This document shows positions 4,912 through 4,992 of a stretch of DNA of 64,000 nucleotides, piece after piece. Numbering within the stretch: position 1 is the first letter of the stretch; each line of letters begins with the position of its first letter. The notes beneath the pieces are model-generated. The model saw only the letters and a program-made list of their open reading frames with translations, did not search any database and was not told the origin of the DNA. The position numbers were made by a program, and so were the translations under genes. The stretch lies in assembly GCF_058153355.1 (NCBI RefSeq), contig NZ_CM177019.1; one strand, given 5' to 3'.

Positions 4912-4992
4912 CATGCCTGCAATCTGGGAAACCGGGGTAGAAAAAAACTTGCAGGCCATAACAGTATCTACGGGATGATTCAGCACATTCCT

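Follow-up and report, generated by a model that had tools for sequence, protein, structure and literature searches.

Hexamers at the two ends of IS621 in an Escherichia coli chromosome match the halves of its published junction promoter

Can a promoter be divided between the two ends of an insertion element and be completed only when these ends are joined? The question is raised by a stretch of 64,000 nt of an Escherichia coli chromosome (the window, hereafter), in which a first-pass annotation had placed the hexamer TTGCAG near the right end (RE) of an IS110-family element and TATTAT at its left end (LE), proposing that they form a sigma-70 promoter facing the bridge RNA and the recombinase once the element is excised as a circle. 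In this study, we describe the anatomy and boundaries of the element, the spacing of the hexamers, the difference in promoter score between the integrated and the joined states, and the conservation of this geometry in relatives, whereas promoter activity, the start of the RNA and the need for the -35 box are published results that do not come from the present analysis. All together, these data make it highly probable that the hexamers represent the halves into which the IS621 junction promoter (Pjunc) is split, and that the excised circle completes it.

The window contains two direct copies of the element on the + strand (Table 1; both regions were read), about 97% identical in alignment, each with a single left-end motif and a single right-end motif according to motif search. 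Host REP sequences are the insertion site of both copies, and a CT dinucleotide stands on either side of each (18204-18205 and 19482-19483 in the case of copy 2). Empty sites of 502 nt each were rebuilt by joining the left flank, one CT and the right flank, and were then looked for in complete E. coli genomes, where at least 80% of the site was covered in 1616 genomes for copy 1 and in 13 genomes for copy 2. The two uninterrupted sites that were fetched, one per copy, aligned without gaps over all 502 nt and were identical across the join, with one CT each (...TTATCAGACCT^ACGGG and ...TTATCCGGCCT^ACCAA), which fixes the ends of the element to the base. The insertions are site-specific, with the CT core inside the REP and without target duplication, as is characteristic of IS110/IS621; inspected by eye, the ends resemble inverted repeats only in a short, imperfect match of subterminal position (ATAACA / TGTATTAT). 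Of 5426 complete E. coli genomes, 2244 carry the DNA of copy 1, under the annotation 'IS110-like element IS621 family transposase', and the published LE and RE of IS621 (Durrant et al. 2024, Supplementary Table 1) are matched except at bases of the target-binding loop and in a variable stretch upstream of the -35. Judged by its sequence, the element is IS621 itself.

The gene products agree with this identification. The recombinase of copy 1 shows 4 differences in 326 residues with respect to the IS621 chain of PDB 8wt6; Pfam places PF01548 (DEDD_Tnp_IS110) at residues 8-152 (E = 2e-24) and PF02371 (Transposase_20) at residues 196-280 (E = 7.5e-26), and the NCBIfam model NF033542 (IS110 RNA-guided transposase) gives 253 bits against a cutoff of 140. 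The predicted start of the bridge RNA, A3704, lies 7 nt after the -10, and its 5' end, AGTGCAG..., coincides with the published start. The bridge RNA of copy 1 is predicted to form three stem-loops, one of them at the 5' end (-65.7 kcal/mol, z = -4.5). As a scan of positions 3000-20500 at the Rfam gathering thresholds matched no family, the bridge RNA was recognised by identity to the published sequence, which copy 1 follows except in the target-binding loop, where it has a 1-nt insertion and two substitutions relative to the reference.

Comparison of the guides in this loop (3753-3761 and 3780-3784 in copy 1; 18269-18277 and 18295-18299 in copy 2) showed that the left guide of copy 2, ATCCGGCCT, equals its own left flank at 9/9 positions and that GGTAG matches the right flank CTACC. 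In the case of copy 1, the guide ATCGGGCCT faces ATCAGACCT with two G·T wobbles, and CGTAG matches CTACG. These matches between guides and flanks suggest that two differently programmed IS621 variants, each in a matching REP subtype, coexist in one genome.

Table 1. Positions in the window of the two IS621 copies and of their promoter halves, RNAs and genes
Feature	Position	Strand	Length, basis or remark
IS621 copy 1	3690-4967	+	1278 bp without the core dinucleotide; alignment of the copies, empty site
IS621 copy 2	18206-19481	+	1276 bp; 97% identity to copy 1; empty site
Left CT core, copy 1	3688-3689	+	single CT in the empty site
Right CT core, copy 1	4968-4969	+	read from the sequence; empty site
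-10 hexamer TATTAT, copy 1	3692-3697	+	5/6; LE positions 3-8
-10 hexamer TATTAT, copy 2	18208-18213	+	motif search
-35 hexamer TTGCAG, copy 1	4949-4954	+	3/6, TTG kept; motif search
-35 hexamer TTGCAG, copy 2	19463-19468	+	motif search
RE part of the 17-bp spacer, also donor left arm	4955-4967	+	13 nt; sequence, published donor
Bridge RNA, copy 1	3704-3881	+	178 nt (reference 177 nt); predicted start A3704
Bridge RNA, copy 2	18220-18396	+	177 nt; target-binding loop differs from copy 1
Recombinase CDS, copy 1	3882-4862	+	326 aa; PDB 8wt6, E = 4.5e-218
Recombinase CDS, copy 2	18397-19377	+	NCBIfam IS110 model
GC-rich hairpin in RE, ACAGCGCC-TGAC-GGCGCTGT	4886-4905 (copy 2: 19400-19419)	.	terminator-like on the minus strand only
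A-tract directly upstream of the -35	4941-4947 (copy 2: 19454-19459)	+	sequence

With the ends of IS621 verified, the joining of RE, CT and LE gives TTGCAG-17 bp-TATTAT, with both hexamers on the + strand, upstream of the bridge RNA and the CDS, and the promoter thus oriented into the element, as had been proposed. The positions given by the first-pass annotation for both hexamers proved exact in the two copies: TTGCAG is followed by 13 nt and then by the right terminus, TATTAT is preceded by the first two bases of the left end, TG, and the spacer of 13 + 2 + 2 bp falls within the 16-18 bp accepted for such promoters. The predicted junction reads ...TTGCAGGCC(A/G)TAACAGTAT-CT-TGTATTAT..., copy 2 carrying an A-to-G change in the spacer relative to the reference, and the reconstructed junction of copy 1, AAACTTGCAGGCCATAACAGTATCTTGTATTATCCCTCCAGTGCAGAGAA, is the IS621 donor of Durrant et al. 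2024 (Supplementary Table 1). An extended -10 was considered and rejected, as the TG abuts the hexamer (TG-TATTAT) rather than standing one base upstream of it, as in TGnTATAAT. The value of this check is that a reading made from the letters alone turned out to be correct, with two details amended. The hexamers had been called near-consensus, which overstates a match of 3/6 to TTGACA and 5/6 to TATAAT, 8/12 in total. In addition, the -35 slot of the integrated element had been said to be occupied by REP sequence reading tgcgct; REP sequence does fill the slot in both copies, although the hexamer is tgcgct only in copy 1 (3669-3674) and cgtaaa in copy 2 (18185-18190).

Promoter strength was estimated with a log-odds matrix of our own construction, based on textbook sigma-70 hexamer frequencies and including spacer penalties. 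The junction scores 9.34 bits, a value that, counting both strands of the 64-kb window, only 0.017% of positions reach, and it is the best sigma-70-like site of IS621, the next best upstream of the CDS scoring 6.6 bits. In the integrated state, the best partner of the -10 yields 4.6 bits in copy 1 and 3.6 bits in copy 2, which corresponds to a loss on integration of 4.8 and 5.7 bits, respectively; with tgcgct or cgtaaa in the slot and this drop in score, the promoter is incomplete when the element is integrated, as expected for Pjunc. A consensus scan demanding at least 4/6 per hexamer and at least 9/12 overall found no promoter on either strand of either integrated IS621 copy, and by the same measure the junction itself, with 8/12 and a weak -35 of 3/6, would fail. 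A second site, TTGTAT (3689-3694)-17-GAAAAT (3712-3717), at 18205-18233 in copy 2, scores 6.6 bits and exists whether the element is integrated or circular; a transcript from it would start within the 5' stem-loop of the bridge RNA.

With only 3/6 matches in the -35, and given how common short hexamer matches are, the arrangement might be taken for a pure chance match between mis-assigned ends. However, when the two 40-nt ends were shuffled independently, an inward-facing site straddling the junction and at least as good was obtained in only 156 of 20000 trials (0.8%). The same hexamers are found in both copies, the ends are fixed to the base by the empty sites, the sequence is that of the IS621 donor used experimentally, and the geometry recurs in the relatives described below. 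Donor identity, relatives and empty sites refute an origin by chance, the probability of which we regard as practically nil.

Experimental work on this junction comes from Durrant et al. 2024 (PMC11208160), who state that a sigma-70 promoter spanning the RE-LE core is restored in the IS621 circle. With RE-LE plasmids of IS621 and five orthologues, small RNA-seq detected an RNA of ~177 nt from the predicted sigma-70 promoter. When the donor was trimmed to 22 bp, it lost the -35 box and recombination was abolished unless the bridge RNA was provided in trans. Since this 22-bp donor keeps TATTAT and loses TTGCAG, the published -35 is the same TTGCAG that the first-pass annotation had named. In the oligonucleotides of the donor screen of that study, the 11 nt between ...GGCCATA and TATTAT were randomised and both hexamers were kept.

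The conservation of the geometry was analysed in one scan of species-representative genomes, which provided 78 loci with relatives at 33-83% identity, their ends being placed from multi-copy genomes and then via conserved termini. Ends flanked by CT (...ATAACAGTAT-CT-TGTATT...), a selection that leaves out the -35 position, were found at 48 loci of Enterobacteriaceae, Methylomonas, Janthinobacterium, Undibacterium, Dokdonella and others, with about 50-83% protein identity; they represent 41 distinct junctions which, as the sequences are related, do not count as independent events. TTG is located exactly 13 nt from the right terminus in 40 of these 41 junctions. The -35 of the relatives is mostly TTGACT, TTGACG or TTGACC, with two cases of TTGACA, and the -10 is TATTAT (29) or TATTGT (9). 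Over the 41 distinct junctions, four spacer bases beside the -35 are variable, the last T of the -10 is invariant, and the information content is zero directly downstream of it. The joined ends score higher than the integrated ones in 36 of 37 distinct junction/integrated pairs (median +8.3 bits) and a 17-bp spacer proved best in 36 of the 37, the gain of +4.8 and +5.7 bits of IS621 lying at the weak end of the family range.

A different explanation of this conservation is that the hexamers are maintained for reasons foreign to transcription, such as donor recognition, a relic of the C-terminal or stop codons of the recombinase, or an inverted repeat of the right end, their likeness to sigma-70 sites being incidental. 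The TGA in T-TGA-CN is indeed the stop codon of the recombinase in 32 of the 48 loci (e.g., locus L029, ...GGC TTGACT TGGATAACAGTAT) and the hexamer is coding in 7 others, in which TGA became TGC and the ORF reaches the TAA of A-TAA-CAGTAT, 6 nt from the terminus, so that, in most relatives, the overlap with the stop codon confounds any reading of the conserved TTGA. Donor recognition likewise confounds what is conserved in the first half of the -10, whose first bases are part of the donor right arm (RDG-RD pairing), and the IS621 clade has an inverted repeat formed by GCCTGCAA and, as its 3' arm, TTGCAGGC.

Against this explanation, the codon preceding the overlapping stop is NNT in all 24 distinct junctions and encodes A, V, S, C or G, and the constancy of the third base across five amino acids indicates selection on the nucleotide. 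Neither TAA nor TAG occurs as the overlapping stop, which is TGA throughout, and the next, non-coding base is usually C (TTGAC), and TTG is kept at the same distance in the IS621 clade despite a non-coding right end of 100-114 nt. These three features argue for selection on nucleotides over protein. As for donor recognition, the 22-bp donor without the -35 recombines normally once the bridge RNA is given in trans, which means that the -35 region is needed for expression in cis and not for recognition of the donor; moreover, the RNA-seq start in the same study falls at the predicted promoter (PMC11208160). Conservation unrelated to transcription is, in our view, very improbable.

The right end of the IS621 clade departs from that of most relatives, where a strong -35 (TTGACN) contains the TGA stop of the recombinase and T is the third base of the last sense codon. 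In the IS621 lineage, the stop would have moved ~100 nt upstream, the -35 would have weakened to TTGCAG, and an A-tract and a conserved inverted repeat would have been gained. That these changes make up an extra regulatory layer is a doubtful, though conceivable, proposal; it could take the form of a hairpin in the 3' UTR of the recombinase, or of a DNA structure tuning Pjunc or insulating the element. The A-tract, of 7 A in copy 1 versus 6 in the reference, is confined to the IS621 clade, whose -35 is TTGCAG or similar and not TTGACN, and it may serve as an UP-element-like compensation for the weak -35.

The inverted repeat, GCCTGCAA (4915-4922)...TTGCAGGC (4949-4956), at 19429-19436 and 19463-19470 in copy 2, contains the -35 as its 3' arm and encloses a small hairpin, TCYGG-GARA-CYGGR, in which wobble changes keep the pairing in copy 1, copy 2 and the reference. 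In Phytobacter (L005), TTGCAG pairs with a different upstream arm, CTGCAGC. Because of the run of A that precedes it, the GC-rich hairpin of the right end looks like an intrinsic terminator only for minus-strand transcription entering the element. A search of plasmids for more diverged non-coding right ends returned only E. coli IS621, at 94-95% identity. The layouts of the -35/stop codon and of the inverted repeat are minor features, for which no description was found in searchable papers, and a literature search on the overlap of the -35 with the stop codon in IS110 elements gave nothing relevant.

The preferred reading, that of two promoter halves completed in the circle, implies the following sequence of events. 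The DEDD recombinase, guided by the bridge RNA encoded at the left end, would excise IS621 as a double-stranded circle in which the right end and the left end meet across one CT core. The -35 of the right end would thereby be brought 17 bp upstream of the -10 of the left end, and the sigma-70 RNA polymerase would start at the A located 7 nt downstream of the -10, yielding the bridge RNA of 177/178 nt and continuing into the recombinase gene. In a chromosomal copy, it is REP sequence that precedes the -10, which leaves the promoter incomplete.

As excision requires the recombinase and the bridge RNA before the promoter exists, some expression must take place in the integrated state. This raises the alternative that the junction promoter is real but minor in vivo, with the bridge RNA and the recombinase coming mainly from read-through into integrated copies or from a weak internal promoter. 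Copy 1 lies ~60 bp past a repetitive, co-oriented large ORF (115-3630; 1171 aa within the window), in a region annotated in other E. coli genomes as YadA-like family protein (trimeric autotransporter adhesin); the REP half to the left of the copy folds weakly (-5.3 kcal/mol), and read-through into copy 1 from this adhesin gene is plausible. The 6.6-bit site described above is available in both states, and in the case of ISPpu10 a weak native promoter in the bridge-RNA locus has been reported to keep basal transposase expression. However, the RNA from the internal site, starting within the 5' stem-loop, would be truncated. In copy 2 the upstream gene is divergent and, at the left junction (18174-18215), a strong REP hairpin (-21.3 kcal/mol) immediately precedes CUUGUAUUAU, forming a predicted structure that resembles a terminator and would block read-through into the element. 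In addition, the published expression in cis depends on the -35 box (PMC11208160), and the split geometry is deeply conserved. A minor role of the junction promoter thus seems unlikely to us, and we infer that integrated copies are nearly silent, the first excision relying on basal or read-through expression.

Natural circle junctions were sought in sequence collections. The junction 16-mer AACAGTATCTTGTATT was searched in metagenome and viral contigs and, among the matches listed (207 loci), none was near an IS110 recombinase; these loci were rejected as natural junctions, since so short a word matches by chance in collections of very large size, and the negative result for the metagenome contigs has little power. 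A 202-nt RE-CT-LE query gave no single-piece match in 5426 complete E. coli genomes. This absence is to be expected of a transient circle, which it fits without being evidence for one. Inspection of the top 202-nt hits distinguished three kinds, none of them a junction: a mini-IS621, a larger deleted remnant and two close full copies. The mini-IS621 (E. coli NWU_4, L286 1501-1692) is an internally deleted derivative of ~190 bp with LE 1-76 joined to the RE, and the remnant (E. coli EC0880B, L290 303-957) is an internally deleted stretch of ~655 bp annotated as partial transposase pseudogenes; both retain the two ends and are candidate non-autonomous elements. The third kind (E. coli AR_0128, L289 393-512) corresponds to two full direct IS621 copies separated by only 102 bp, inserted in neighbouring REPs that belong to the same cluster, and such close pairs could give composite excisions.

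The split promoter of IS621 is already known and experimentally characterised, and the junction-promoter logic of the IS110 family, to which the first-pass annotation had appealed, has IS621 as its published case. The circular form of these elements is described in the literature, and an overview of junction promoters in the IS1111 and IS110 families is given by Siddiquee et al. 2024. A study in NAR 2025 (PMC12288879) treats IS621 as the archetype with a hybrid promoter and reports hybrid promoters for IS621 and for six further elements of the IS110 family. More recently, it was described that the leader of IS621 from Pjunc to the ATG drives sfGFP, and a state-dependent model was proposed, quiescent when integrated and activated in the circle (bioRxiv 10.64898/2026.03.19.712850). 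As the feature was published with experiments in 2024 and extended in 2025-2026, finding it again in an E. coli chromosome adds nothing new. Its significance is that a split promoter would limit full expression of the bridge RNA and the recombinase to the excised circle, the sole form able to insert, thus restricting damage to the host and tying expression to transposition competence. It also has practical relevance, since IS621 is the founding bridge-recombinase tool for genome editing.

The same principle is found outside the family. In copy-out-paste-in elements (IS911/IS3, IS2, IS30 and IS21), the -35 and the -10 lie in opposite ends and a strong promoter is formed only in the circle or tandem junction; unlike IS621, these elements have unrelated DDE transposases, carry terminal inverted repeats, draw their spacer from flanking bases and lack a guide RNA. 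The circles of ISEc11 (IS1111 family) and IS492 also abut the ends to form an active promoter into the transposase gene; the IS1111 family differs in its guide (seek) RNA, placed downstream of its transposase gene, and in its subterminal inverted repeats, and IS492 in its target and host. ISPpu9 is, like IS621, a REP-targeting IS110-family element that forms circles, but reporter fusions show no hybrid promoter at its junction (PMC12288879), so the split promoter is not universal in the IS110 family. ISPpu10 of Pseudomonas putida shares with IS621 the family, the CT core, the REP targets and a hybrid promoter that drives the bridge RNA, its -35 supplied by the right end and its -10 by the left (PMC12288879). 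A model in which it is repressed when integrated and activated as a circle has also been put forward for ISPpu10. This element differs in sequence and in a bridge RNA without the 5' stem-loop, and a target-derived terminator at its integrated junction was shown experimentally, whereas in IS621 only copy 2 has a comparable predicted hairpin and U-rich tract. Finally, the published IS621 RE-LE promoter (PMC11208160) is that of the same element, with the same junction (50-nt donor), -35, -10 and bridge-RNA 5' end, and the copies described here depart from it only by strain-level variation in the target-binding loop, the A-tract, and the spacer and guides of copy 2.
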